Origin: an uncultured Dehalococcoidia bacterium
GTDB lineage: Bacteria; Chloroflexota; Dehalococcoidia; Lucifugimonadales; UBA3495
Length of the DNA: 64,000 nt
NCBI GenBank assembly: GCA_958296445.1
Contig: OY282565.1
Location: 721,936-785,935 of the forward strand
Direction: 5' to 3'
A program made the translations under genes and the position numbers. The notes below the pieces were generated by a model. It was not told where the DNA came from, searched no databases, and saw nothing but the letters and a program-made list of their open reading frames with translations. Below are positions 2,896 to 63,978 of this stretch, one piece after another (the first letter of the stretch is position 1; the number at the start of each line of letters is the position of its first letter).

Positions 2896-3753
2896 CTATT
2901 CGCCTCGCAGACGGCGTAGCTCCTCGCGCAGACGCTCGGCCTCGGACTGGGCGGTGTCGCGCTCGGCCTTGGCCTCGTCGCGCTTGGTGGCGGCCTCGTC
3001 GCGCTCGGCGGTGGCCTCGTCGCGCTCAACGGCGGTGAGCAGGCGGGCGGCGCGTTCCGAGTCGCGCTCGGTGACGGCTTGGTCGCGCTCGGCGGCGGTC
3101 TGTAGGTGGGCGGCTTTTTCCTCGGCGATGTTGTTGATGTAGGCGCCCGTCTTGCGGTCGTAATACATTAAGCGCGGGCCACTGGCGCAGAGGCACAAGT
3201 CCAGTGCCGGGCTGTAGCCCCATACCATCCCGTCGGCTTCGGTGGTTAGTTCGATGGGCTGGTACTCGCCGTCGGCTAGGGTGTCGCCGGCCAGCGGGGC
3301 GCCGTAGAGACGCCTGCCGGTGCGGTCGAAGCGCCAGTATTCGCCGACGCCTATCCGGGCGTAGAGGTCTCGCTTGGGGCCGGTGTCGGTGCGGCGGGTG
3401 GTTCGCGACGCCACTTCCAGGGCGAAATCCGGCGGTTTGCCGGCTTCGGCGATGATGTATCCGTCACGGGCAAAGATGGATTCGGTGTCCACCCCGAAAA
3501 CGATGTACACATCGGGGCGCACCCGGCGGCGGCGCATATCGTTGGGGTCGTAGAAAACGAAACCGCCGGTGTCTACCAGCGTGTGCGGCTGATGGGAGAA
3601 ATGGTCGCGGAGCAGGTGGCCGGATTCGTCAATGGGTTCAGCTTGCAGCATATCATCGCGCCGGTATTCGGGAGTGGGGCAGACATAGCCCTCGGGCAGA
3701 ATCCTGCGGTAGGGCAGGAAGGGGGCGGCGGGCTTGGATGCTGGGGAAGTCAT
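2896..3753 (-). CDS. Uma2/DUF820-family endonuclease domain fused to a C-terminal ERD-repeat coiled coil
   Basis: Core reads VRPDVYIVFG ... PPDFALEVASRTTRRTDTGPKRDLYARIGVGEYWRFD (PD-(D/E)xK-like Uma2 pattern). The last ~80 aa are a charged repeat (ERDQAVTERDSE...ERDEATAERDEAATKRDEAKAERD) encoded by ~21-nt DNA repeats at about 2940-3030. Confidence 0.75.
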   Translation of the reverse strand: MTSPASKPAAPFLPYRRILPEGYVCPTPEYRRDDMLQAEPIDESGHLLRDHFSHQPHTLVDTGGFVFYDPNDMRRRRVRPDVYIVFGVDTESIFARDGYIIAEAGKPPDFALEVASRTTRRTDTGPKRDLYARIGVGEYWRFDRTGRRLYGAPLAGDTLADGEYQPIELTTEADGMVWGYSPALDLCLCASGPRLMYYDRKTGAYINNIAEEKAAHLQTAAERDQAVTERDSERAARLLTAVERDEATAERDEAATKRDEAKAERDTAQSEAERLREELRRLRGE

Positions 3754-33058: not shown

Positions 33059-33353
33059 AAACTCGTATCCTTTCGCCGAAGCGTAAAACAGATGAACAAG
33101 TCATCGCCCGTTGGCCCTTGCTTTGGGCGGGATGCCTGTCCAGTACTGCGGCGGATACTAGCACAGCCCGCCGCGCCCGCTACGATTGGAGCGTGTGCGG
33201 AATTTTCGGAATTTAACCAAAATTGAACTGCGGCCAATTCACCCCTGCCGCTTACAGGAAACGCCCCGGCGGGCAAATTCCGCTGTCCCTGAGCTGGTCC
33301 AAGGGTGAACGGAATTTGACCGCCGGGGCGGGCGGGAACGGCGGGGCTTGGGG

Positions 33354-44517: not shown

Positions 44518-44985
44518 TCATTCGCCCTCGCCCGTCGCTATGGGCAACAGCTCGCCGGTGAGTCGCCGCCAGCGGTTGCGCTCTGATCTAGTGGTGATAG
44601 AGGCCGGGCGCTGCGGCTGGCGGCGCAAGGTATCCAGTTGCTGAAGCAAGTTCTTTGCGGTGATTATGCGGCCCCCGATTTCGTCCAGTTCCATATCGTC
44701 TTCGTAATAATTGATGTGCAGCTTTTCTACGGCGTCGTATAGAAACATCAGGTCGGGCCGTTGCCACTCCTCGCACAGCAGATAGGCGGCGTCGTTGAGC
44801 AGGCGGTGGCCCCAATGGTTCCAGCCCCGTTGCTCGGCGATGGACTTGATGGCCTCGGCTACTGCGCCCCAACCCTTTTCCGACGCTTGCACCCGGTCGC
44901 CTGCTTGCAGGTATTCGTCGGCCTTTTGGATGTAGTGGCGGCTTAGGGCGGCGTACTTTTCCGGTTCGTAATTTGGTTGTTGCAT
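44518..44985 (-). CDS. PaREP1-like (HEPN-superfamily-related) protein, copy 1
   Basis: YIQKADEYLQAGDRVQASEKGWGAVAEAIKSIAEQRGWNHWGHRLL...LHINYYEDDM parallels the PaREP1 pattern (GD.vQASEK.WGA...A.K..A...G....sH..l...LH.NFYE). Confidence 0.6.
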   Translation of the reverse strand: MQQPNYEPEKYAALSRHYIQKADEYLQAGDRVQASEKGWGAVAEAIKSIAEQRGWNHWGHRLLNDAAYLLCEEWQRPDLMFLYDAVEKLHINYYEDDMELDEIGGRIITAKNLLQQLDTLRRQPQRPASITTRSERNRWRRLTGELLPIATGEGE

Positions 44986-45013
44986 CGCTCCCTCTGGCTG
45001 GGTTGCCTTTGAT

Positions 45014-45499
45014 TTATTCCGGCTGTAGGTGGTCTGGCCCGTGGGCGGCGTCTAGGGGCAGCAACTCGCCGGTGAGTCGCCGCCATCGGTTGCGCTGGTC
45101 GCGGGTTGCGATTACGGGCAGGATGGGCGGTTGCTGGCGCAAGGTTTCCAGTTCCCGCAGCAGTGTTTTGGCGTTGCCGACGCTGGTTGCGATGTCGTCC
45201 AGTTCCATATCGTCTTCGTAAAAATTGATGTGCAACTTTTCGATGGCGTCATACGAAACCTTCACGTCAGGCCGGCCCCACTCTACTGACAGCAGATAGG
45301 CGGCGTCGTTTATTAGCCGGTGGCCCTGATGGTTCCAGCCCCGTTGCTCGGCGATGGACTTGATGGCTTCGGCTACTGCGCCCCAACCCTTTTCCGACGC
45401 TTGCACCCGGTCGCCAACTTGCAGGAATTCGTCGGCCTTTTGGATGTAGTGGCGGCTTAGGGCGGCGTACTTTTCCGGTTCGTGATTCGGCTGTTGCAT
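45014..45499 (-). CDS. PaREP1-like protein, copy 2
   Basis: 161 aa, same pattern. Tail RNRWRRLTGELLPLDAAHGPDHLQPE. Confidence 0.6.
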   Translation of the reverse strand: MQQPNHEPEKYAALSRHYIQKADEFLQVGDRVQASEKGWGAVAEAIKSIAEQRGWNHQGHRLINDAAYLLSVEWGRPDVKVSYDAIEKLHINFYEDDMELDDIATSVGNAKTLLRELETLRQQPPILPVIATRDQRNRWRRLTGELLPLDAAHGPDHLQPE

Positions 45500-45527
45500 C
45501 GCTCCCTCTGGCTGGGCTGCCTTTGAT

Positions 45528-46013
45528 TTATACCGGCTGGGGATGGTCTGGCCCGTGGGCGGCGTCTAAGGGCAACAGCTCGCCGGTGAGTCGCCGCCAG
45601 CGGTTGCGCTGGTCGCGGGTTGCGATTACGGGCGGGCGGGGCGGCTGTTGGCGCAGGGTTTCCAGTTCTTGCAACAGGGTTTTGGCGTTGCCGACGCTGG
45701 TTGCGATGTCGTCCAGTTCCATATTGTCTTCGTAAAAATTGATATGCAGGCTTTCTGCGGCGCGGTATAGAGTCCGCACGTCGGGGCGGCCCCATTCCTC
45801 GGCTAGGAGATAGGCGGCGTCGTTGAGCAGGCGGTGGCCCCAATGGTTCCAGCCCCGTTGCGCGGCGATGGACTTGATGGCCTCGGCTACTGCGCCCCAG
45901 CCCTTTTCCGACGCTTGCACCCGGTCGTCGGCTTGCAGGTATTCGTCGGCCTTTTGGATGTAGTGGCGGCTTAGGGCGGCGTACTTTTCCGGCTCGTGAT
46001 TCGGCTGTTGCAT
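45528..46013 (-). CDS. PaREP1-like protein, copy 3
   Basis: 161 aa, nearly identical to copy 4. Confidence 0.6.
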   Translation of the reverse strand: MQQPNHEPEKYAALSRHYIQKADEYLQADDRVQASEKGWGAVAEAIKSIAAQRGWNHWGHRLLNDAAYLLAEEWGRPDVRTLYRAAESLHINFYEDNMELDDIATSVGNAKTLLQELETLRQQPPRPPVIATRDQRNRWRRLTGELLPLDAAHGPDHPQPV

Positions 46014-46041
46014 CGCTCCCTCCGGCTGGGCTGCCTTTGGT

Positions 46042-46527
46042 TTATGATGGCTGGGGGTGGTCTGGTCCCGGGGCGGCGTCTATGGGCAGCAACTCGCCGG
46101 TGAGTCGCCGCCATCGGTTGCGCTGGTCGCGGGTTGCGATTACGGGCGGGCGGGGCGGTTGTTGGCGCAGAGTTTCCAGTTCTTGCAGCAGTGTTTTGGC
46201 GTCGCCGACGCTGGCCGCGATGTCGTCCAGTTCCATATTGTCTTCGTAGAAATTGATATGCAGGCTTTCTGCGGCGCGGTATAGAGTTCGTACGTCGGGG
46301 CGGCCCCATTCCTCGGCTAGGAGATAGGCGGCATCGTTGAGCAGGCGGTGGCCCCAATGGTTCCAGCCCCGTTGCGCGGCGATGGACTTGATGGCCTCGG
46401 CTACTGCGCCCCAGCCCTTTTCCGACGCTTGCACCCGGTCGCCAACTTGCAGGTATTCGTCGGCCTTTTGGATGTAGTGGCGGCTTAGGGCGGCGTACTT
46501 TTCCGGTTCGTGATTCGGCTGTTGCAT
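46042..46527 (-). CDS. PaREP1-like protein, copy 4
   Basis: 161 aa. Confidence 0.6.
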   Translation of the reverse strand: MQQPNHEPEKYAALSRHYIQKADEYLQVGDRVQASEKGWGAVAEAIKSIAAQRGWNHWGHRLLNDAAYLLAEEWGRPDVRTLYRAAESLHINFYEDNMELDDIAASVGDAKTLLQELETLRQQPPRPPVIATRDQRNRWRRLTGELLPIDAAPGPDHPQPS

Positions 46528-46555
46528 CGCTCCCTCTGGCTTGGTTGCCTTTGAT

Positions 46556-47041
46556 TTATGCCGGCTGGGGATGGTCCGGCCCCGGAGCTGCGTCTATGGG
46601 CAGCAGCTCGCCGGTGAGGCGCCGCCATCGGTTGCGCTGGTCGCGGGTTGCGATTACGGGCGGTTGGGGCGGTTGTTGGCGCAGGGTTTCCAGTTCCCGC
46701 AGCAGGTTTTTGGCGTTACCGACGATGGCGGCGATGTGGTCCAGTCCAATGTTGTCTTCGTAAAAGTTGATGTGCAGATCTTTGGCGGCGGTGAACAGAA
46801 TCAGCACGTCGGGGCGGCCCCATTCCTCGGATAGCAGATAGGCGGCGTCGTTTATTAGACGGTGGCTCTGGTGGTTCCAGCCTCGTTGCGCGGCGATGGA
46901 CTTGATGGCTTCGGCCACTGCGCCCCAGCCCTTTTCCGACGCCTGCACCCGGTCTCCGGCTTGCAGGTATTCGTCGGCCTTTTGGATGTAGTGGCGGCTT
47001 AAGGCGGCGTATTTTTCCGGCCCTTGATGCTGTGGTTCCAT
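46556..47041 (-). CDS. PaREP1-like protein, copy 5 (ORF extends to 47074)
   Basis: The start at MEPQHQG keeps the 514-bp phase. Confidence 0.6.
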   Translation of the reverse strand: MEPQHQGPEKYAALSRHYIQKADEYLQAGDRVQASEKGWGAVAEAIKSIAAQRGWNHQSHRLINDAAYLLSEEWGRPDVLILFTAAKDLHINFYEDNIGLDHIAAIVGNAKNLLRELETLRQQPPQPPVIATRDQRNRWRRLTGELLPIDAAPGPDHPQPA

Positions 47042-47153
47042 TGCTCTCTCCGGTTGACCAGCTTGTAAGCTCATTCGGTTATCCTATATTAGCATCGCGC
47101 CGGGCAATGTGGTGTAGAATGGCGGGCAGACACCGATGTATGAGGGGCTGTCC

Positions 47154-54233: not shown

Positions 54234-54334
54234 CCGGCCCTCTACTATTATGTGAAACGGAATTATTGTCGAATCGGGCCTATTCTATCAGTATTGCGGT
54301 GAAATGGGGAATCGTGGCGGCAAACCCGCAGGGC

Positions 54335-54678
54335 GGGCAACCATCCGGCAAAACGGGCAACCGGGCGGCAGGGCGGGCAACCATCCGGCAAGACGGGCAA
54401 CCGGGCGGCAGGGCGGGCAACCACAAGGGTTGCCCCTACCGGGCCGGGGCCACGCCGCCGGATGTAGGGGCAACCCTTGTGGTTGCCCCCGCCCGGTTGC
54501 CCCCGGTGTGGTTGCCCCCGGCCGGTTGGCGGCAATCCCTTTCGATTCTTTGTCTGAATCAGGATTCACCGGATTTAAGGATTTTCAGGATTACCCCCAT
54601 CCGGTTAATCCCAATAATCCGGCAAATCCTGATTCAGACAATCGGCCCCGTCCGGTTGCCCCCGTCCGGTTGCCCCCA
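54335..54678. repeat. GGGCAACC / GGTTGCCC motif array in opposed orientation around a central palindrome
   Basis: GGGCAACC at 54335, 54355, 54375, 54395 and 54415 (20-bp period). Central palindrome gggcaaccacaagggttgcccctac...gtaggggcaacccttgtggttgccc (54415-54487). GGTTGCCCCC at 54481, 54495, 54510, 54654 and 54669. A MITE copy interrupts the right arm. Confidence 0.85.
54551..54640. repeat. MITE-like palindromic element copy (90 bp)
   Basis: tgtctgaatcaggattcaccggatttaagg...ggcaaatcctgattcagaca. Confidence 0.65.
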
Positions 54679-54790
54679 TCCGTCCGAGAAAATTCCGCTA
54701 CTCGGTTTCGGCCCTTTAACCCTGTCTGAATCCGTCAGCTGTTGACGAAAGCTGTCAGCATGACTCAGACGCCTCAGTGACGAATTTCGC

Positions 54791-54973
54791 TCATTGGGGC
54801 GAATTGCAACTGACGTATAAGGAACCGGGATAGCGGGTTGGCGGCGCGGGGGTGTCGGGGTCGTCTGGTATGGCATAGGTCTGGTAGTCGGGAATCCGTA
54901 GGTAGTCAACGGCATCCTGCAGATGGTTCAGGATGGGGTTGGTCAGACGGCGGAAGGGGCGGGGCTTTGCCAT
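54791..54973 (-). CDS. hypothetical 60-aa protein (last gene of the micro-ORF operon)
   Basis: AGGGAG upstream. MAKPRPFRRLTNPILNHLQDAVDYLRIPDYQ... Confidence 0.4.
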   Translation of the reverse strand: MAKPRPFRRLTNPILNHLQDAVDYLRIPDYQTYAIPDDPDTPAPPTRYPGSLYVSCNSPQ

Positions 54974-54983
54974 ACGCTACTCC

Positions 54984-55079
54984 CTAGCAGCAGCAGGTTG
55001 CTAACGCGGCTGCGTAGTCTGCGTATTCGAGCAGCCGTTTGAGCAGTTCGTCCAGAACTGGATCGGGTCCATCATTCAC
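54984..55079 (-). CDS. possible 31-aa peptide ending in CCC (GTG start); an alternative ATG frame at 55075 gives a 24-aa peptide
   Basis: Hand translation: MNDGPDPVLDELLKRLLEYADYAAALATCCC. AAGGAAG lies upstream. The frame choice is ambiguous. Confidence 0.25.
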   Translation of the reverse strand: MNDGPDPVLDELLKRLLEYADYAAALATCCC

Positions 55080-55084
55080 CTTCC

Positions 55085-55213
55085 TTATCCTGCCAGTCTT
55101 GTCGCAACCCCTTGTAGGACATCTGCCAGCAACACCGTTCCTAGCACCAGTCCTAGACTTAAAGCCGCCAAAGCCGTCAGTTGCGCTGCTATTCTCAGTC
55201 CTTTAACCATCAT
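55085..55213 (-). CDS. 42-aa hydrophobic micro-protein
   Basis: Hand translation: MMVKGLRIAAQLTALAALSLGLVLGTVLLADVLQGVATRLAG. GGAGG lies immediately upstream. Confidence 0.45.
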   Translation of the reverse strand: MMVKGLRIAAQLTALAALSLGLVLGTVLLADVLQGVATRLAG

Positions 55214-55257
55214 TGCCTCCGGTGTGGGATTTTTTGCCGCAGTACCAGCAACTCCAG

Positions 55258-55374
55258 CTACATCCCGCCGGTCAAGAACAGATACAGGTATTGCCTGCCT
55301 TGCTCAGACGCCATCAGTGCGCCTATGCCGAGGATGGACAGCAACGGCAGGGCGATAATCAGCTTTATTAACAT
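55258..55374 (-). CDS. 38-aa hydrophobic micro-protein
   Basis: Hand translation: MLIKLIIALPLLSILGIGALMASEQGRQYLYLFLTGGM. GGAGGG lies 7 nt upstream. Confidence 0.45.
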   Translation of the reverse strand: MLIKLIIALPLLSILGIGALMASEQGRQYLYLFLTGGM

Positions 55375-55394
55375 CCTTCAACCCTCCGGTTTTT

Positions 55395-55601
55395 CTAGTT
55401 CTCCGGCCCCAGGTACCAGTAGGCTGTTGCCACGAACCCTGCGGCGGCAGCTAGGAGTAGCCCTATCGAGAAAATCAGCGTGCCAGTCTCTCCCCCGCTC
55501 ATGGGTAGCAGTAGCAGTGCGCCGATGAATGCGGCGCTGGCCAGTAGATACGCCCCGGCTTTCGCCGTTACTGGCAATGCCCGTTTGATTAGCCTAAGCA
55601 T
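55395..55601 (-). CDS. 68-aa two-TM micro-protein
   Basis: ORF-track entry. AGGAGAG upstream overlaps the preceding stop. Confidence 0.5.
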   Translation of the reverse strand: MLRLIKRALPVTAKAGAYLLASAAFIGALLLLPMSGGETGTLIFSIGLLLAAAAGFVATAYWYLGPEN

Positions 55602-55611
55602 TCTCTCTCTC

Positions 55612-55743
55612 CTAAGTTTGGGTTATCCGCCCCACGTGAATATGGGCGTAAATTTCACCGGGATTGCCGCCAAATCCAAACGCGACCCCCAGAGCTACCG
55701 CGTCCACCGCCAGGAGCATCAAGATACCTTTCGCTTTTGCCAA
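55612..55743 (-). CDS. 43-aa (TTG start) or 35-aa (ATG 55719) hydrophobic micro-protein
   Basis: Hand translation: (M)AKAKGILMLLAVDAVALGVAFGFGGNPGEIYAHIHVGRITQT. GGAGG lies 10 nt upstream of the TTG. Confidence 0.4.
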   Translation of the reverse strand: MAKAKGILMLLAVDAVALGVAFGFGGNPGEIYAHIHVGRITQT

Positions 55744-55763
55744 TATTGTCTTACCTCCGCCGT

Positions 55764-55883
55764 TTACCAGCCCATTACCGGAACGAGCCCCCGGCTAGGC
55801 TCCGGTATGACGCCAAGCGCCATCAGCGCGAAGAGAGTTACGAACAGAACTGGGAACGCTGCTATAACCGCCAGTTTCAGCAT
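55764..55883 (-). CDS. 39-aa hydrophobic micro-protein
   Basis: Hand translation: MLKLAVIAAFPVLFVTLFALMALGVIPEPSRGLVPVMGW. GGAGG lies 9 nt upstream. Confidence 0.45.
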   Translation of the reverse strand: MLKLAVIAAFPVLFVTLFALMALGVIPEPSRGLVPVMGW

Positions 55884-55902
55884 CCGAATGTACCTCCGGT
55901 TT

Positions 55903-56181
55903 TTATTCTTCCCTGCCGGAATCCCTAAGCTGGCTATTGTCTGCGTCTTTCCGTTTCTCAGGGCGTCTGCCCCGGGCCCCCTGATCCTGTTGGTCGCCAG
56001 GCAGTGGCGCGAATAGCGCGCTGTACAGACCTAGGACCAACGGCGCCGCCGTCATGAGCGTATAGAGCGTGAACGCTCCGCCCTGCGGCTTAACCGCTAT
56101 GCCGAACCCTAGGATCCCGAGTAAGACAACCACGGAACCTGCTACTGCCCCCCGGAAGGCAATTCTCCTTATCCGTCCCAT
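55903..56181 (-). CDS. 92-aa two-TM protein with charged C-terminal tail
   Basis: ORF-track entry. GAGGGAG upstream. The start lies 19 nt downstream of the integrase-fragment stop. Confidence 0.5.
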   Translation of the reverse strand: MGRIRRIAFRGAVAGSVVVLLGILGFGIAVKPQGGAFTLYTLMTAAPLVLGLYSALFAPLPGDQQDQGARGRRPEKRKDADNSQLRDSGREE

Positions 56182-56200: not shown

Positions 56201-56635
56201 CTAGGGAACCAAGTCCATAGATTCGCTGCCTCCTGCGTTGAGCTGCAGGTAAGCCATTGTGGTTGTGAGCCTGGCGTGGCCCAGCCAGGCTGAAACTTCG
56301 TTGAGTTGCACGCCGTGTTCCAACCAATGCCTGGCTGCAGAGTGTCGTAGGGTGTGCGCCCCCAAGCGGTCAGTGTCCAGCCCTGCCGCTATGGCCGCGG
56401 CCTTAGTCCATTCCCAAATGCGCTGGGGTCTGACGGCGGCACCATCCCGTCCGGGTAGCAGCAAGGCGCCGGCCGGCTTCCCCTCTACGGTATAGCCCAG
56501 GCGGACGCCGATTTTCTTGTGGCAAGGAACAATGCGGCCGGGGCGGCTGCGCTTGGCCTCGCTTTGGACGCCCCCTTGCGGAGGTAAACCGGCGACTGCG
56601 ACACAAGGAAGAACCGCAGCGGCGCAGGGCGGCAA
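56201..56635 (-). pseudogene. 5'-truncated tyrosine recombinase/integrase (C-terminal catalytic segment only)
   Basis: ...GAHTLRHSAARHWLEHGVQLNEVSAWLGHARLTTTMAYLQL carries the H-x-x-R and terminal Tyr boxes. The N-terminal SAM-like domain and first Arg box are absent. Confidence 0.75.
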
Positions 56636-56649
56636 CCAAAGCGGCCGGC

Positions 56650-56815
56650 GGTTCTTGGGACACGGCGGGGCGGAGTTGCAGCGAGTTCTGGGCCAGTTGC
56701 CGGTTCCTGACCCTTACGACGAATGGCTGAAACTGTCTGCTTCGCTGAAATCGGCGGGGCTTTCGATGGCGGAAGTCAGTAGCTGGAGTCGCAGGGGGAA
56801 GAAATACCGAGAAAA
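56650..56815 (+). pseudogene. fragment resembling a primase C-terminal (PriCT-2-like) domain
   Basis: LGQLPVPDPYDEWLKLSASLKSAGLSMAEVSSWSRRGKKY parallels the PriCT-2 pattern (..yd.W..vg.AL......g...f..WS....kY). There is no intact gene around it. Confidence 0.35.
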
Positions 56816-56986
56816 GAAAAATCCGCTACTCGGTTCCGGCCTCAGCTCAGCCCGAACCCGCCGCCGCGCTGAGGTAAGGAGTCGATGGGGATAGGTCGGC
56901 CGGTGGCAGATTCCCGGCATTTTGCGGGTTGGGAAATTGGCCCGGTGGGGCGCGAAGCCCCTATCGTTCCTGCTCCTTATAGCTAA

Positions 56987-57014: not shown

Positions 57015-57416
57015 TGCTGCGTCTACTGCCGCGTGTCGGCTTAGGTCTACGGCTCGTTGGGAATCGTCCGACTGCGTGCCGGAGGGGGGTAAGGGGGTTT
57101 GTGGGCTTCCGGCACTTAAGAGAAAAATCCACTACTTGGTTTCGGCCTTTAACTTGGCCTGAATCAGTCGTTATATTGACGAAAAACGTCTAGGCAAATG
57201 ATTCTGATGCGGTGAAGAATTCTGCCCTTTAGGGGAATTTTGGAATCATCCTGGCCGGACATAAAATAAGGGATTGTATGCCGACTTTACCCGCGCGCTT
57301 GGAAGTGTGCGAAATTAGGCCGGCCGTTTGGAGAGCGGCGACTCAATTTCGCACATGGACGGCCTGCTGGATGCAATGGCGGCAAGGCCGGGCGTTTCCG
57401 CCGTGGATTGTTGCCA

Positions 57417-57665
57417 CTAGTACGAGGACGCTGGTACTCGGTCGTTGAGGGTAATGCCACGGGCGACGTTGCGCCGCCGGGTGATGTAGCCTCCGCGTTC
57501 CAGTTGCTTGATGTGGTAGTGCGCCACTGATGTGCTGCTCATGCTGCAATTGAGTTGAATTTCACGGATGGAGGGCGGGTAAGAGTGCTGGGCGCGGTAG
57601 GCCCGCAGGTACTCCAGGATGCGTTGCCGGGGCGGGCTGAGCGGCGGCGCTTGGCGTTCGGGCAT
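57417..57665 (-). CDS. LexA-type winged-helix DNA-binding domain protein lacking the S24 peptidase domain
   Basis: LSPPRQRILEYLRAYRAQHSYPPSIREIQLNCSMSSTSVAHYHIKQLERGGYITR parallels the LexA N-terminal domain. Only 82 aa. Confidence 0.75.
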   Translation of the reverse strand: MPERQAPPLSPPRQRILEYLRAYRAQHSYPPSIREIQLNCSMSSTSVAHYHIKQLERGGYITRRRNVARGITLNDRVPASSY

Positions 57666-57742
57666 GGTTGGCTCTGTTGCCAGCGGTTTTGGTATCGGCG
57701 ACCGCTGGTGGAACCATTGTGTCGGCTCGCACTGGGTATGCG

Positions 57743-58609
57743 CTATGGGGAAGTGTCACTTAGGTCCTTGCGGTTGACGGTGGCCCGGGTCTCCATGTCC
57801 GAGGGTACTAGTTCCGTGTAATTGGGGAAGTTTCCCAGGGTCAGCCGGGAGTGTATCTTTACGGTTTCGCTGGGGATCCTCATGGTGGACAGGCTGTGGG
57901 TGATCTCCGGGTTTTCGCTCTCTTCCCGGTCATCCCCGTTGTCTGACTTGTGGTTGCCGAAGGCGAGGGTGACGGAGCCTTCGGCGGCTGGCAACAGCCT
58001 CGCCAGTTCTACTACTGTCTTGTTGGGAATATTGACGTTCAGGTCGTGCTCCGTGGCTTCGGCCAGCTCCGTTTCCTGGATGGACAGACGGAATCCGTCT
58101 GCGCCGGCCACGTTCAGTTTGATCCCGTTGGCTCTCAGGTTGAGGGAGTTCAGCATGGGCCTTGTCTCGCCCTTCTCTGTGGTGAAGTAGGTGCGCTGAA
58201 TGACCTTGTACAGAACTTTGGTGTCCACCTTGAAGGATACTTCATCCTGTAGGGCCGGGGGATCCGCCGTTTTATCGGGGTTGGCATTGACGTAGATGTT
58301 GCTGATGCTACGGCCGGCCGTGACCCTCATCAGATTTCTTTCCGGGTCTTGGTCGAGGTCAACGCGGGTGCGGTTCAGGCATTTGGCCACTTGGGTGAAC
58401 AGTTCGGACGATAGGGCGGCTTTGCCTTCTTGGTTCACGTCGCAGCCTATCCAGGTTGTCATGGACAGGTCGGGGTCGCCTGCCCGGAGCTGTAGAGTTC
58501 CGTTTTCGGCGGTAAGCACGGTGTACTTGGCTTCGCTGTTCCCGTGGGCTGCGCGGTCAACGATGCTCAGGGCCCTGCTGAGTCTTTCCTGAGTGCGTGA
58601 GATTTCTAT
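57743..58609 (-). CDS. DNA polymerase III beta sliding-clamp homolog, domains I-II only (ORF extends upstream to 59080)
   Basis: IEISRTQERLSRALSIVDRAA...LQLRAGDPDLSM...RPMLNSLNLRANGIKLNVAGADGFRLS...LGNFPNYTELVP; stops ~12 aa into domain III. No canonical start codon at the homologous N-terminus. The upstream 157 codons are low-complexity. Confidence 0.7.
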   Translation of the reverse strand: MEISRTQERLSRALSIVDRAAHGNSEAKYTVLTAENGTLQLRAGDPDLSMTTWIGCDVNQEGKAALSSELFTQVAKCLNRTRVDLDQDPERNLMRVTAGRSISNIYVNANPDKTADPPALQDEVSFKVDTKVLYKVIQRTYFTTEKGETRPMLNSLNLRANGIKLNVAGADGFRLSIQETELAEATEHDLNVNIPNKTVVELARLLPAAEGSVTLAFGNHKSDNGDDREESENPEITHSLSTMRIPSETVKIHSRLTLGNFPNYTELVPSDMETRATVNRKDLSDTSP

Positions 58610-59149
58610 CGTGTCTCCTCTTCTTCCGAGTCTTTCCGTAGTCCTCTTGCGCTTAGAATTGAGTGACGGCGGGATGAAGCGTTGGGTAAGGGGGGTTCTG
58701 GTGGTCCGGTTCGAGGAATTTCTTGGGCTGGCGATGTTGTTGGGGATTGTGGTTCTGGCTTGGCTGGCAACCGACTCTGATCCCCGTCCGTCGGCTTTCG
58801 GGCCTGCTCCGGGATTCTGGGGGCGGATGGTTTCCGGGGGCCGGAGGAGTTGGCTGTTGCTTGCGCCGGTTCTGGGGCTGTCGGGGTTCTTGACCTCGCG
58901 CCGGTGGGAGCCCGCGGTGATGTACCCCGTCTGCGGGCTTTCGGCGGCGTTTGTCTTATGGTCCGCACTTCCGTGGTTTCTGTCCGGGCTGGTCAACGTT
59001 CTGTTGGCTCTGCTGATGTTCGTTCTGATCTTGCCAGTCGCTTTCGTGAAGGGGTTGTTCCTGTAGATTCCGGGTGACAAGGAAACCCGGCAGACATTGA
59101 AGTCTGCCGGGCGAACCGGGCTTTGACGCTGTGTGGAGGGCCGGATTGT

Positions 59150-62376: not shown

Positions 62377-63978
62377 TTAGATTCCACAAAGCCCTTCGCA
62401 TTCTTCTTGCATACTGTCGACTTCCGTTCCTTGGGTGTTGAATTTGACTTCGTTCAGTGGGAGCCGCGATTTGTGCAGGTACGCGGTTCCTGTGAGTGCC
62501 CCCCGGCTCTGCGGCACGTTCTGCATAGCCCATTCGATATTGACCGCGTCCTGGAATGAGATCGGGTCGTTCTCTTTCATGCTGGCCCACATCCGGTCTG
62601 TATGGTAGGGACAACCGATACAGGCACTTTTGGGCAGATCCCGGCCGGGGTAGCGCTCTTGGAACCATTGGTACAGTTGTGCCCTCGATATGTCTCTTTC
62701 CAGTAGGGGGTAGACTAGGGTTATCCAGGCCTGTTTACTGGGTTTCACCCGTGCAGCTTCGTCGATACTCAGGCCCAGCCACATATCTACCTGCTGGTCC
62801 TTCGGTGTCAGCTGGCCATTTTTCAGGCCCAGGTGCTGTCTGAGGTACTGGTGGATCGGTTTTAGCTTGTACTGCTTAGTGCACTGCCGTGTTCCGACGT
62901 AGTGTTTTCCGTCGTCCTTCACCACGAATACCGGTATGTCTATGAATTTCCGTCCCTCAGGATTAATTCCTCGCAGGATGTCTTCCCTGATATTGCCATT
63001 ACTTACCCGAATCACAGGGTAGCTTAGTTGCTGTTCCAGCCAATCTAGGTGGTCGTAAACTGCCTTGGGTTCCCACCCGGTGTCGGCGAATATGGCAAAA
63101 TCCGGTTTGGGGAAGCCCTCGTACTCCTGTTCAGCCATGAGAGCCATGACTGTTGACTGGACGCCTGCGCCTAGGCTGAGTACCTGTAGGTTATGCCTTC
63201 CCCGCAGTTTAGTCCGGTCGGATACATATTTTGTCTGGCGCATAAGCCGGTCGGCGGATTTCATGGTGATTTCTTGTATCTCTTTCCGGCTTAGAGAATC
63301 GAGCAACCGTGCGCCTGCGGCCCGGTTCAGGTCTCTTGCCATTTCTCTCGATCCTTCCCTGCTGATTCCCTCTGCGCCGGTCATTAGCTCCCGTAGGTAC
63401 TCTGCCAGCACGTTGGGGGAGCGCATTACGTAGTATCCGGTGCAGTTGTGGTAGTCTTCCGGGTTATGAGAGAAATGATCCAGCACCTGCTTAGCGGTGA
63501 ATGATTTTCCGCTGTCTGCGGCTCTTTGGGCGATTTCTGCGACCCACAGCGTTCTTCCTGCCACGCTGGCGTCGGTGATGCCCCGTCCGCTCTCCGGCAG
63601 GTAGTGGAGCAGGGTGTGGCTGGTTGGATTGGCGGCGTTTGGCAAGGGCCATCGGGAGATGCCGAACTCCAGCAGGTGAAAGCAGCTTAGCCAGGCTAGC
63701 AGCATGGGGTCGGCCATGTGTGCCGGAGTGATGTCCGGTATATTCTCGCGGAACTTGAGGGCGTGCTGGTCGGCCCGGGCTTTGGATGTCCGGTTGTACT
63801 GTGTTGCCGGGGGCATACTGATCTCGCCTTGAGCGAACAGGCCGGTGGGTTCGGCGTAATTGGGGATGTTGAGAGACTCTAGGAGTTTCCCGAAGTCGGT
63901 CTGTGGGTTTTGCCAGACCTCGGGGGTCTGTCGTGCCACCGACCGCAGGGCGTCCATTGCCTCGGTTGTAAGCCTCAT
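62377..63978 (-). CDS. fusion protein: unknown ~260-aa N-terminal domain + PAPS-reductase-like (PP-loop ATP pyrophosphatase) domain
   Basis: NLQVLSLGAGVQSTVMALMA is a PP-loop variant. DFAIFADTGWEP; C-terminal Cys cluster SACIGCPYH ... EECEGLCGI. The start lies 22 nt from the window end. Confidence 0.75.
   Translation of the reverse strand: MRLTTEAMDALRSVARQTPEVWQNPQTDFGKLLESLNIPNYAEPTGLFAQGEISMPPATQYNRTSKARADQHALKFRENIPDITPAHMADPMLLAWLSCFHLLEFGISRWPLPNAANPTSHTLLHYLPESGRGITDASVAGRTLWVAEIAQRAADSGKSFTAKQVLDHFSHNPEDYHNCTGYYVMRSPNVLAEYLRELMTGAEGISREGSREMARDLNRAAGARLLDSLSRKEIQEITMKSADRLMRQTKYVSDRTKLRGRHNLQVLSLGAGVQSTVMALMAEQEYEGFPKPDFAIFADTGWEPKAVYDHLDWLEQQLSYPVIRVSNGNIREDILRGINPEGRKFIDIPVFVVKDDGKHYVGTRQCTKQYKLKPIHQYLRQHLGLKNGQLTPKDQQVDMWLGLSIDEAARVKPSKQAWITLVYPLLERDISRAQLYQWFQERYPGRDLPKSACIGCPYHTDRMWASMKENDPISFQDAVNIEWAMQNVPQSRGALTGTAYLHKSRLPLNEVKFNTQGTEVDSMQEECEGLCGI

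Follow-up and report, generated by a model that had tools for sequence, protein, structure and literature searches.

What is encoded by a string of eight very small open reading frames (ORFs) lying behind a broken integrase gene in an uncultured Dehalococcoidia bacterium (Chloroflexota; lineage UBA3495), and from what kind of element does it derive? The locus is part of a 64,000-nt stretch of contig OY282565.1 (assembly GCA_958296445.1, positions 721,936 to 785,935), called the window below, and all coordinates follow its numbering. A first-pass annotation had read the ORFs as an operon of mostly hydrophobic peptides and had likened it to virion or assembly modules, lysis cassettes or conjugative pilus modules. 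Our analysis favors, with a probability of roughly 40%, the reading that this cassette encodes membrane or envelope proteins of a degraded integrative element, either virus- or plasmid-like.

Eight consecutive, non-overlapping ORFs of 92, 39, 43, 68, 38, 42, 31 and 60 aa were located on the minus strand between 56181 and 54791, at the lengths that had been claimed. ORF1 (55903 to 56181), which starts 19 nt past the stop codon of the recombinase gene and is preceded by a GGGAG Shine-Dalgarno sequence, encodes a 92-aa membrane protein predicted to form a two-helix hairpin. It is followed by ORF2 (55764 to 55883; GGAGG, 9 nt, ATG), a 39-aa peptide with one predicted N-terminal transmembrane (TM) helix and a 15-aa C-terminal tail, and by ORF3 (55612 to 55743; GGAGG, 10 nt, TTG), with a single predicted TM helix. 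The start of ORF3 is ambiguous: the TTG gives 43 aa, and an internal ATG, preferred by some pipelines, gives 35 aa. ORF4 (55395 to 55601; AGGAG, 7 nt, ATG; 68 aa) is again a predicted two-helix hairpin membrane protein, and ORF5 (55258 to 55374; GGAGG, 8 nt, ATG; 38 aa) and ORF6 (55085 to 55213; GGAGG, 5 nt, ATG) each carry a single predicted TM helix. ORF6 may start at 55213 (42 aa) or at 55210 (41 aa), the second ATG having the better spacing. ORF7 (54984 to 55079; 31 aa from GTG) is predicted to form an acidic amphipathic helix and ends in CCC, and ORF8 (54791 to 54973; GGGAG, 6 nt, ATG; 60 aa) is a predicted soluble, proline-rich protein without a TM helix. From ORF1 to ORF8, the stop-to-start gaps are 19, 20, 10, 20, 44 to 47, 5 and 10 nt, and 91% of the 1391 nt is coding. 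The overlaps that had been mentioned do not exist, as no pair of ORFs overlaps. Public gene callers recovered seven of the eight ORFs and missed ORF7. This is the least certain member, having a GTG start, a poor Shine-Dalgarno sequence and a rival 24-aa ATG frame; by codon-position GC, the 31-aa frame fits the cassette and the 24-aa alternative does not.

We then asked how far these frames depart from chance. Ribosome-binding sites were defined as GGAG[GA], GGGAG or AGGAG followed after 3 to 10 nt by an ATG, GTG or TTG that opens at least 24 codons. A 1431-nt stretch covering the cassette contained seven such sites on the minus strand, one for every ORF but ORF7, and none on the plus strand. 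The background in the window is 0.78 sites per 1431 nt per strand, and 2000 runs of a first-order Markov simulation averaged 0.79 sites, with a maximum of 5. A GGAGG-like Shine-Dalgarno sequence had been reported before each ORF, which holds for seven of them, that of ORF7 being poor. The annotated frame was the best of the three sense frames in all eight ORFs. GC contents at the three codon positions were 0.66, 0.47 and 0.63 in the cassette versus 0.67, 0.47 and 0.78 in host genes; third-position GC (GC3) is thus below that of the host and the first two positions are as in the host, indicating a coding composition in foreign-like DNA. GC3 ranged from 0.54 to 0.77 in the six neighboring genes scored as island. 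A competing gene on the plus strand, for which ORFs of 178 and 115 aa were considered, was rejected on account of its poor composition and of the lack of any family match. Overall, the ORFs behave like genuine, translationally coupled genes, far beyond chance.

Six of the eight peptides had been described as dominated by TM helices, and this was borne out. Applying a 19-residue Kyte-Doolittle window with a threshold of 1.6 or more, we found a hydrophobic segment in 6/8 ORFs compared to 7.8% of 360 ORFs of 38 to 95 aa in the window (binomial P, ~5e-6). Two such segments were found in each of ORF1 (residues 12 to 30 and 42 to 60) and ORF4. Furthermore, all six hydrophobic peptides have an N-terminal cluster of K/R residues (MGRIRRIAFR, MLK, MAKAK, MLRLIKR, MLIK and MMVKGLR). 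The cluster precedes the first helix in every case and represents the positive-inside signature of real membrane proteins. In ORF1, the N-terminal RIRRIAFR is matched at the other end by a highly charged C-terminal tail of 35 aa. AlphaFold2 modeled ORF1 with helices at residues 3 to 29 and 35 to 57 (pLDDT, 67) and ORF4 as a helical hairpin (pLDDT, 83). The N-terminal half of ORF7 is helical and acidic, and the peptide ends in ...ALATCCC. We also considered a tandem duplication of a triplet (two-TM, one-TM, one-TM), prompted by the repeated junction AAAAACCGGAGG. Alignments compared to shuffled sequences revealed no significant paralogy, the best pair (ORF1-ORF5) reaching z = 3.4 without correction over 28 pairs.

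The gene upstream of the cassette had been called a truncated integrase, and our data agree. An open frame runs on the minus strand from 56635 to 56201, and its last 111 residues (56201 to 56536) match the catalytic domain of tyrosine recombinases (Pfam PF00589; 2.4e-14), the part up to 56635 being without homology. The closest relatives are unusually short (180 to 215 aa), and the fragment is what remains of such a "mini" recombinase of ~190 aa. It is 40 to 46% identical to the C-terminal 111 residues of short relatives (P0017, P0019, P0020 and others), including HTLRHSAARHWL, WLGH and the catalytic tyrosine. In tblastn searches with three relatives of ~195 aa, homology begins at their residue 85, corresponding to position 56536 of the window. 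The N-terminal ~84 aa, among them the box I arginine (WRAGLRVSEAL in the relatives), could not be traced in any frame. The fragment retains HxxR (HTLRH), WLGH and the catalytic tyrosine and thus lacks the full catalytic set R...K...HxxR...H/W...Y. It is a tyrosine recombinase by descent, albeit truncated. Because residues 1 to 84 and the box I arginine are missing, the window recombinase cannot be active, and neither integration nor excision of the element is possible with it any longer.

Primase debris had also been proposed. On the plus strand, we found a fragment of a PriCT_2 (primase C-terminal) domain at 56682 to 56820 (E value, 1.3e-4; 22.7 bits versus a cutoff of 22), which breaks off at the middle copy of a direct repeat. 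Its score is borderline, and the motif YDEWLKLSASLKSAGL...WSRRGKKY is convincing, so that the claim can be retained for a putative primase remnant. We tested it as a relative of the D5-type primase found beside an intact mini-recombinase (L011), and no homology was found.

The window contains exactly three copies of the direct repeat (core GGCCGRAACCRAGTAGYGGAWTTTTCT), all of them here and on the minus strand. Copy 1 (core GGCCGAAACCGAGTAGCGGAATTTTCTC; 54686 to 54760) lies directly downstream of ORF8 and is a candidate attachment (att) site or element boundary, copy 2 (56814 to 56841) lies inside the debris and consists of a 28-nt core with weaker similarity beyond it, and copy 3 (57120 to 57190) is the candidate opposite boundary. 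The alignable length between window copies ranges from 28 to 75 nt, and the outer copies align over ~75 nt at ~80% identity. Together, the copies bracket ~2.4 kb comprising the primase fragment, the recombinase fragment and the cassette. These three parts form one relic, in which the cassette is continuous with the 3' end of the recombinase gene. Neither the cassette nor the recombinase nor the repeat is present in a sister genome, a 3.97-Mb circular contig whose isochorismatase gene is ~72% identical at the nucleotide level. We assign the ORFs to mobile-element debris because of the 19-nt gap to the recombinase gene, the foreign-like GC3, the absence from the sister genome and the bracketing repeats. 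In support of this link, a neighboring LexA DNA-binding module is 91 to 93% identical in the sister genome although the cassette is absent there.

To learn what may follow an intact recombinase of this type, we inspected its relatives at six loci (L009, L010, L011, L017, L018 and L019). At four of the six (L009, L010, L011 and L017), co-directional small ORFs begin 23 to 94 nt after the recombinase gene. In L010 the gene is followed by a 101-aa two-TM protein with a basic tail, an architecture like that of ORF1, and in L009 by TM proteins of 95 and 68 aa. None of the small ORFs of L009 to L011 resembles ORF1 to ORF8, and most are not hydrophobic. Nearby genes encode a D5-type primase-helicase (L011), ParA and a resolvase (L010), a resolvase (L017) and, further off, RtcB (L009). 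The remaining two loci are circular contigs of 28 and 38 kb with a 232-nt gap between the recombinase gene and the next ORF. Hence, strings of small genes behind a mini-recombinase gene recur on extrachromosomal or integrative elements. As a side observation, the two circular ENA contigs are dominated by giant fn3/cadherin-like/Calx-beta proteins and may represent an uncharacterized plasmid or virus type.

Searches with the cassette itself returned no family. The sequence collections were queried individually with ORF1, ORF4 and ORF8. No relative of ORF1 was found among 5.8 billion clustered proteins or, by exhaustive HMMER scoring, among 1.84 billion representatives; one match (P0081) was discarded as spurious, being a repetitive cadherin-like protein with a score summed over five repeats. 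ORF1, ORF4 and ORF8 had no relatives in IMG/VR, and ORF4 had none in the JGI metagenomes. Neither tblastn with ORF1 nor blastn with the cassette DNA recovered anything from 50,697 phage or 72,556 plasmid records. For none of the eight peptides did Pfam return a significant match, and NCBIfam and PADLOC gave nothing for ORF1, ORF4 and ORF8. In PHROGs, no significant match was obtained for seven peptides, and ORF2 (39 aa) likewise returned no family; the match of ORF6 to a holin PHROG was weak and non-significant (E value, 0.05). The locus was found again on several contigs of two ENA metagenome assemblies and on a 4.0-Mb contig, each time 100% identical over 3.6 kb. These identical copies are the only ones found, leaving no variation within the population. 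This string of small genes is unique so far.

How could such proteins have served their element? The parent element would have used a ~190-aa mini-recombinase and a PriCT-type primase. The six hydrophobic peptides would enter the cytoplasmic membrane and keep their N termini inside, ORF1 and ORF4 as helical hairpins and ORF2, ORF3, ORF5 and ORF6 as single-pass anchors with external tails of 12 to 19 aa, and ORF7 and ORF8 could be small soluble partners. The six peptides might then have acted as structural or egress proteins of a budding or filamentous element, a role that has been suggested for small TM proteins in inoviruses, in fuselloviruses and in the IME1 elements of Chloroflexota. We put forward this mechanism, membrane-embedded structural or egress proteins of a non-lytic element, as a tentative proposal that is somewhat unlikely to be right in this specific form. 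The closest analogue, by its architecture, would be IME1, a proposed group of budding or filamentous double-stranded DNA viruses of Dehalococcoidia/Chloroflexota that are integrative and 21 to 28 kb long and whose genes for small TM proteins, arranged in a run, are accompanied by those for a tyrosine recombinase, a primase-helicase and a pI-like ATPase (bioRxiv 10.64898/2026.09.15.751708). Their 14 conserved orthologous groups include the pI-like HOG04, the TM groups HOG05-07, HOG00 and HOG01, the recombinase HOG02 and the primase-helicase HOG13, and the genes are ordered as recombinase, regulators, ATPase and TM genes, then primase and repressor (bioRxiv 10.64898/2026.09.15.751708). The relic shares with IME1 the phylum, the integrative lifestyle, a tyrosine recombinase, a primase of archaeal/phage type, a run of small TM proteins and a GC content below that of the host. 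Likewise, the consecutive, coupled genes for hydrophobic proteins of 30 to 110 aa recall the g7/g9/g8/g6-type coat-protein genes of the Inoviridae (Roux et al. 2019, PMC6813254), a feature that is not specific to this family, and some inoviruses integrate by means of tyrosine recombinases (PMC6813254).

Several observations weigh against this reading. Unlike IME1, the relic spans only 2.4 kb and has no ATPase; its TM genes follow the recombinase gene directly, with no regulator or ATPase in between, and its primase fragment lies on the opposite strand. The adjacent pI/Zot ATPase that is the hallmark of inovirus and IME1 modules is missing from the cassette. No ORF of 150 aa or more in the island part of the window contains a Walker A motif, and no Zot match was found among the larger ORFs tested between 56201 and 63978, so that the absence of a visible morphogenesis ATPase, already pointed out, is confirmed within the window. 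Nor does the window encode a large protein of the adsorption or spike type. No cassette peptide shows the feature typical of the inovirus major coat protein, a basic C-terminal tail immediately behind a single helix. Foldseek searches of BFVD and PDB with the ORF1 and ORF4 models returned generic helical hairpins only, all with E values of >0.5. Because no homologue was found for ORF1, ORF4 and ORF8, neither selection on the frames nor a transfer of function can be demonstrated. No sigma-70-like promoter was found on the minus strand from 57300 to 56150, even at 8/12 matches. The repeat copies differ at 3/28 core positions, and the repeat occurs as a single copy, in unrelated contexts, in each of three other metagenome-assembled genomes (MAGs) of Chloroflexota/Dehalococcoidia. 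It may therefore not be an att site. Finally, the mini-recombinase family is almost absent from IMG/VR, and a viral rather than plasmid-like origin is thus not supported. Further differences from the Inoviridae are that the cassette lacks the coat pattern of signal peptide, acidic region, TM helix and basic tail, and that we found here no g3-like large protein, no rolling-circle Rep and no PHROG or Pfam match. The likeness to a virion, lysis or pilus module that had been suggested remains one of size and hydrophobicity, with no match in sequence or fold. We thus file the cassette under none of these families and regard it as an orphan cluster of genes for small membrane proteins, left on a decayed integrative element and of a familiar kind.

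Among other origins, the cassette could be accessory cargo of the "moron" type that acts on the host membrane to the advantage of host or element (holin/antiholin-like pore formers, superinfection-exclusion proteins or abortive-infection membrane toxins) and was kept in a defense island after the death of its element. We regard this as unlikely, yet as the best of the alternatives. With its N terminus inside, its two TM helices and the strong charge of its C-terminal tail, ORF1 is built like a class II holin, and ORF4 shares this architecture less clearly, both proteins having two TM helices with the two termini inside and a length of 68 to 92 aa, with the charged tail in ORF1. The match of ORF6 to a holin PHROG would point the same way; however, it is not significant, and neither an endolysin (muralytic domain) in the neighboring ORFs, nor a spanin, nor a sensor partner nearby was found. 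Moreover, four additional single-pass peptides are present, and six membrane peptides in a row exceed the needs of any described lysis or exclusion cassette. The surroundings are rich in defense genes (an SspD-like/DUF6339 protein and an N4/N6 methyltransferase here, and TIR, SNF2/PLD and Bil genes at the sister loci), but ORF1, ORF4 and ORF8 themselves have no PADLOC match. Eight intact frames beside a broken recombinase would suit a cargo that has been retained; however, this may reflect a recent deletion rather than selection, and the lack of a promoter argues against it as well. It is appreciably less probable still that the peptides are components for conjugation or intramycelial spread (Spd- or VirB2/VirB3-like) from an integrative plasmid-like element. 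Actinomycete integrative and conjugative elements combine an integrase, a primase-type replication gene and overlapping small hydrophobic ORFs, a layout that the locus recalls, and relatives of the mini-recombinase lie on plasmid-like contigs with ParA and a resolvase (L010 and L017) and on the circular 28- to 38-kb contigs. Against this, the window contains no FtsK/TraB, VirB4 or coupling ATPase, the island holds no ORF with a Walker A motif, and no transfer protein was matched in Pfam, NCBIfam or PHROGs; the analogy to Spd is one of architecture. Unlike a type IV secretion system or Spd module, the cassette thus comes with no translocase. The cassette also differs from an integron array, in which attC sites, imperfect palindromes of about 60 to 120 nt, separate promoterless ORFs and the IntI gene is divergent. 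The gaps of 5 to 47 nt all but once hold a strong Shine-Dalgarno sequence, and no inverted repeats, hence no attC sites, lie between the ORFs. The recombinase is co-directional and of the short type, and its NCBIfam integron-integrase scores are far below the cutoff. As to the short recombinases (~180 to 210 aa, catalytic domain only), the likeness lies in the small ORFs close behind them, but the window copy lacks their first 84 residues, and the small ORFs of L009 to L011 share no sequence with ours.

The ORFs might also be non-functional, that is, chance frames, fragments of a shattered multi-pass membrane gene, or once-real genes that are now a silent relic. The lack of a homologue and of a promoter, the single sequence type, the weak start of ORF7 and a codon log-likelihood of ~0 compared to 0.2 to 0.6 in most host genes are in line with this. 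However, neither chance nor a frameshifted pseudogene would be expected to yield seven well-spaced, strong Shine-Dalgarno sites, the six TM peptides all follow the positive-inside rule, and low codon adaptation is what one expects of foreign DNA. A pseudogenized large membrane protein was rejected because of the Shine-Dalgarno sites before the ORFs and because no fragment of the cassette matches a transporter or membrane-protein family in Pfam, even at E values up to 10. The silent-relic version is compatible with our favored reading and is no true rival, and on the whole we consider the non-functional explanation improbable. Similarly doubtful, and slightly more so, is the possibility that the cassette is the complete membrane or virion module of a tiny unknown virus-like or satellite element of Chloroflexota, built almost wholly from micro-proteins of 31 to 92 aa, or such a module that the host has captured and now uses in a defense island as a membrane-acting anti-phage or exclusion device. 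Least probable of all is a locus for a bacteriocin or for a ribosomally synthesized and post-translationally modified peptide, in which ORF7, with its T/C-rich C terminus, would be a precursor and the TM proteins would serve immunity or export. Small TM immunity proteins are indeed common in bacteriocin loci, and the acidic helical half and ...ALATCCC end of ORF7 would suit a precursor. However, no modification enzyme, protease or ABC exporter lies nearby, no double-glycine or known leader motif was found, and the candidate precursor is the least secure of the eight ORFs.

We return to the reading of membrane or envelope proteins of a degraded integrative element and to the present state of the module. 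Since the recombinase N terminus, an assembly ATPase and a recognizable promoter are all missing, it is probably no longer part of a working element. A canonical terminator was not found after ORF8, and the cassette may be silent.

The repeat that brackets the relic was also characterized in its own right. In most copies, similarity reaches beyond the core to ~85 to 110 nt, and the element ends in GGCCGRAACCRAGTAGYGGAWTTTTCTC. It spans 54686 to 54800, 56814 to 56841 and 57120 to 57235 on the minus strand of the window and, in other genomes, positions 1745 to 1872 of L012, 1651 to 1778 of L013 and 3172 to 3299 of L014; in L013, a Rieske oxygenase gene follows it after 45 nt. A known RNA was rejected, as Rfam gave no match. 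A consensus fold of five sequences showed a few compensatory pairs, and terminal inverted repeats, as expected for a miniature inverted-repeat transposable element, were weak and inconsistent. The repeat may be an unknown small RNA or leader (perhaps serving as an integration target), or else a small mobile sequence. The stretch that separates the relic from the threonine aldolase gene holds another repeat block (54263 to 54680) with at least four tandem 20-nt units (GCAGGGCGGGCAACCATCCG / GCAAAACGGGCAACCGGGCG) and two near-perfect inverted repeats, one of 25 nt that is perfect (54415 to 54439 and 54464 to 54488) and one of 26 nt (54550 to 54575 and 54616 to 54641). It is a possible transcript end or stabilizer. 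A CTGAATCAGGATT-type motif was also seen at other intergenic spots (~11452, 41961 and 42268), like a genome-wide repetitive extragenic palindromic element.

The relic sits in a variable, defense-rich genomic island. Beyond the repeat block are the host genes for threonine aldolase, a DNA methyltransferase and an isochorismatase, and on the other flank a 500-bp module of LexA type is followed by a DnaN-like gene, a membrane protein, a 651-aa protein and an SspD-like/DUF6339 protein. The LexA module (57264 to 57760), with a LexA_DNA_bind gene of 82 aa (57417 to 57665, minus strand) within ~500 bp, is found at three loci of the sister genome at the identity given above, and variants at least 90% identical at the protein level occur on two further contigs (L015 and L016). 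It lies at ~9900 to 10400 in L006, L007, L008 and L015, and its gene at 3229 to 3477 in L016; in L008, a 2.4-kb insertion cuts off its last 66 bp. In the four loci with recognizable domains, the module closes variable gene sets of defense type, consisting of a DUF1156 methylase with an SNF2/PLD helicase, ThsB-TIR, ResIII and, in the window, the DnaN-like and SspD-like genes. In L006 and L016, the genes upstream of it had no Pfam match. It thus has the appearance of a conserved terminal module, or anchor, in a defense-island system.

Other features of the window were noted in passing. The DnaN-like gene is a 445-aa frame (57743 to 59080, minus strand), whose C-terminal ~260 residues correspond to domains 1 and 2 of the DNA polymerase III beta clamp (TIGR00663; 3.1e-33, below the cutoff) and whose first ~180 residues are of low complexity and rich in Pro/Ser/Arg. 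Either this is an island-borne sliding clamp that is truncated or divergent, or the true start lies further in. At the window edge, a 533-aa protein (62377 to 63978, minus strand) combines DUF6339 (PADLOC PDC-M33C) with a PAPS-reductase/SspD-like domain (PADLOC SspD; 2.3e-15), which suggests a defense gene of phosphorothioation-type or related DNA modification, with its partners located past 64000. Five tandem paralogues of 155 to 172 aa with a period of 514 nt lie at 44518 to 47074 (minus strand), and three of them are annotated as PaREP1 (PF05942), a mainly archaeal family, in the matching metagenome contig. An 89-nt tRNA-Ala(AGC) called by ARAGORN at 33195 to 33283 (minus strand), with its anticodon at position 32, lies within overlapping long ORFs and is probably a false positive.

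What the finding means depends on expression. The host may be associated with sponges, and expression of the cassette would mean that an uncultured Chloroflexota symbiont has at least six further micro-membrane proteins that are unannotated. An expressed cassette would, in addition, provide a lead to non-tailed, membrane-associated mobile elements in Chloroflexota, of which IME1 is the only group that we found described. More generally, gene callers and 60-aa cutoffs miss or shorten strings of micro-genes of this kind, and decayed integrative elements leave orphan coding debris in defense islands.

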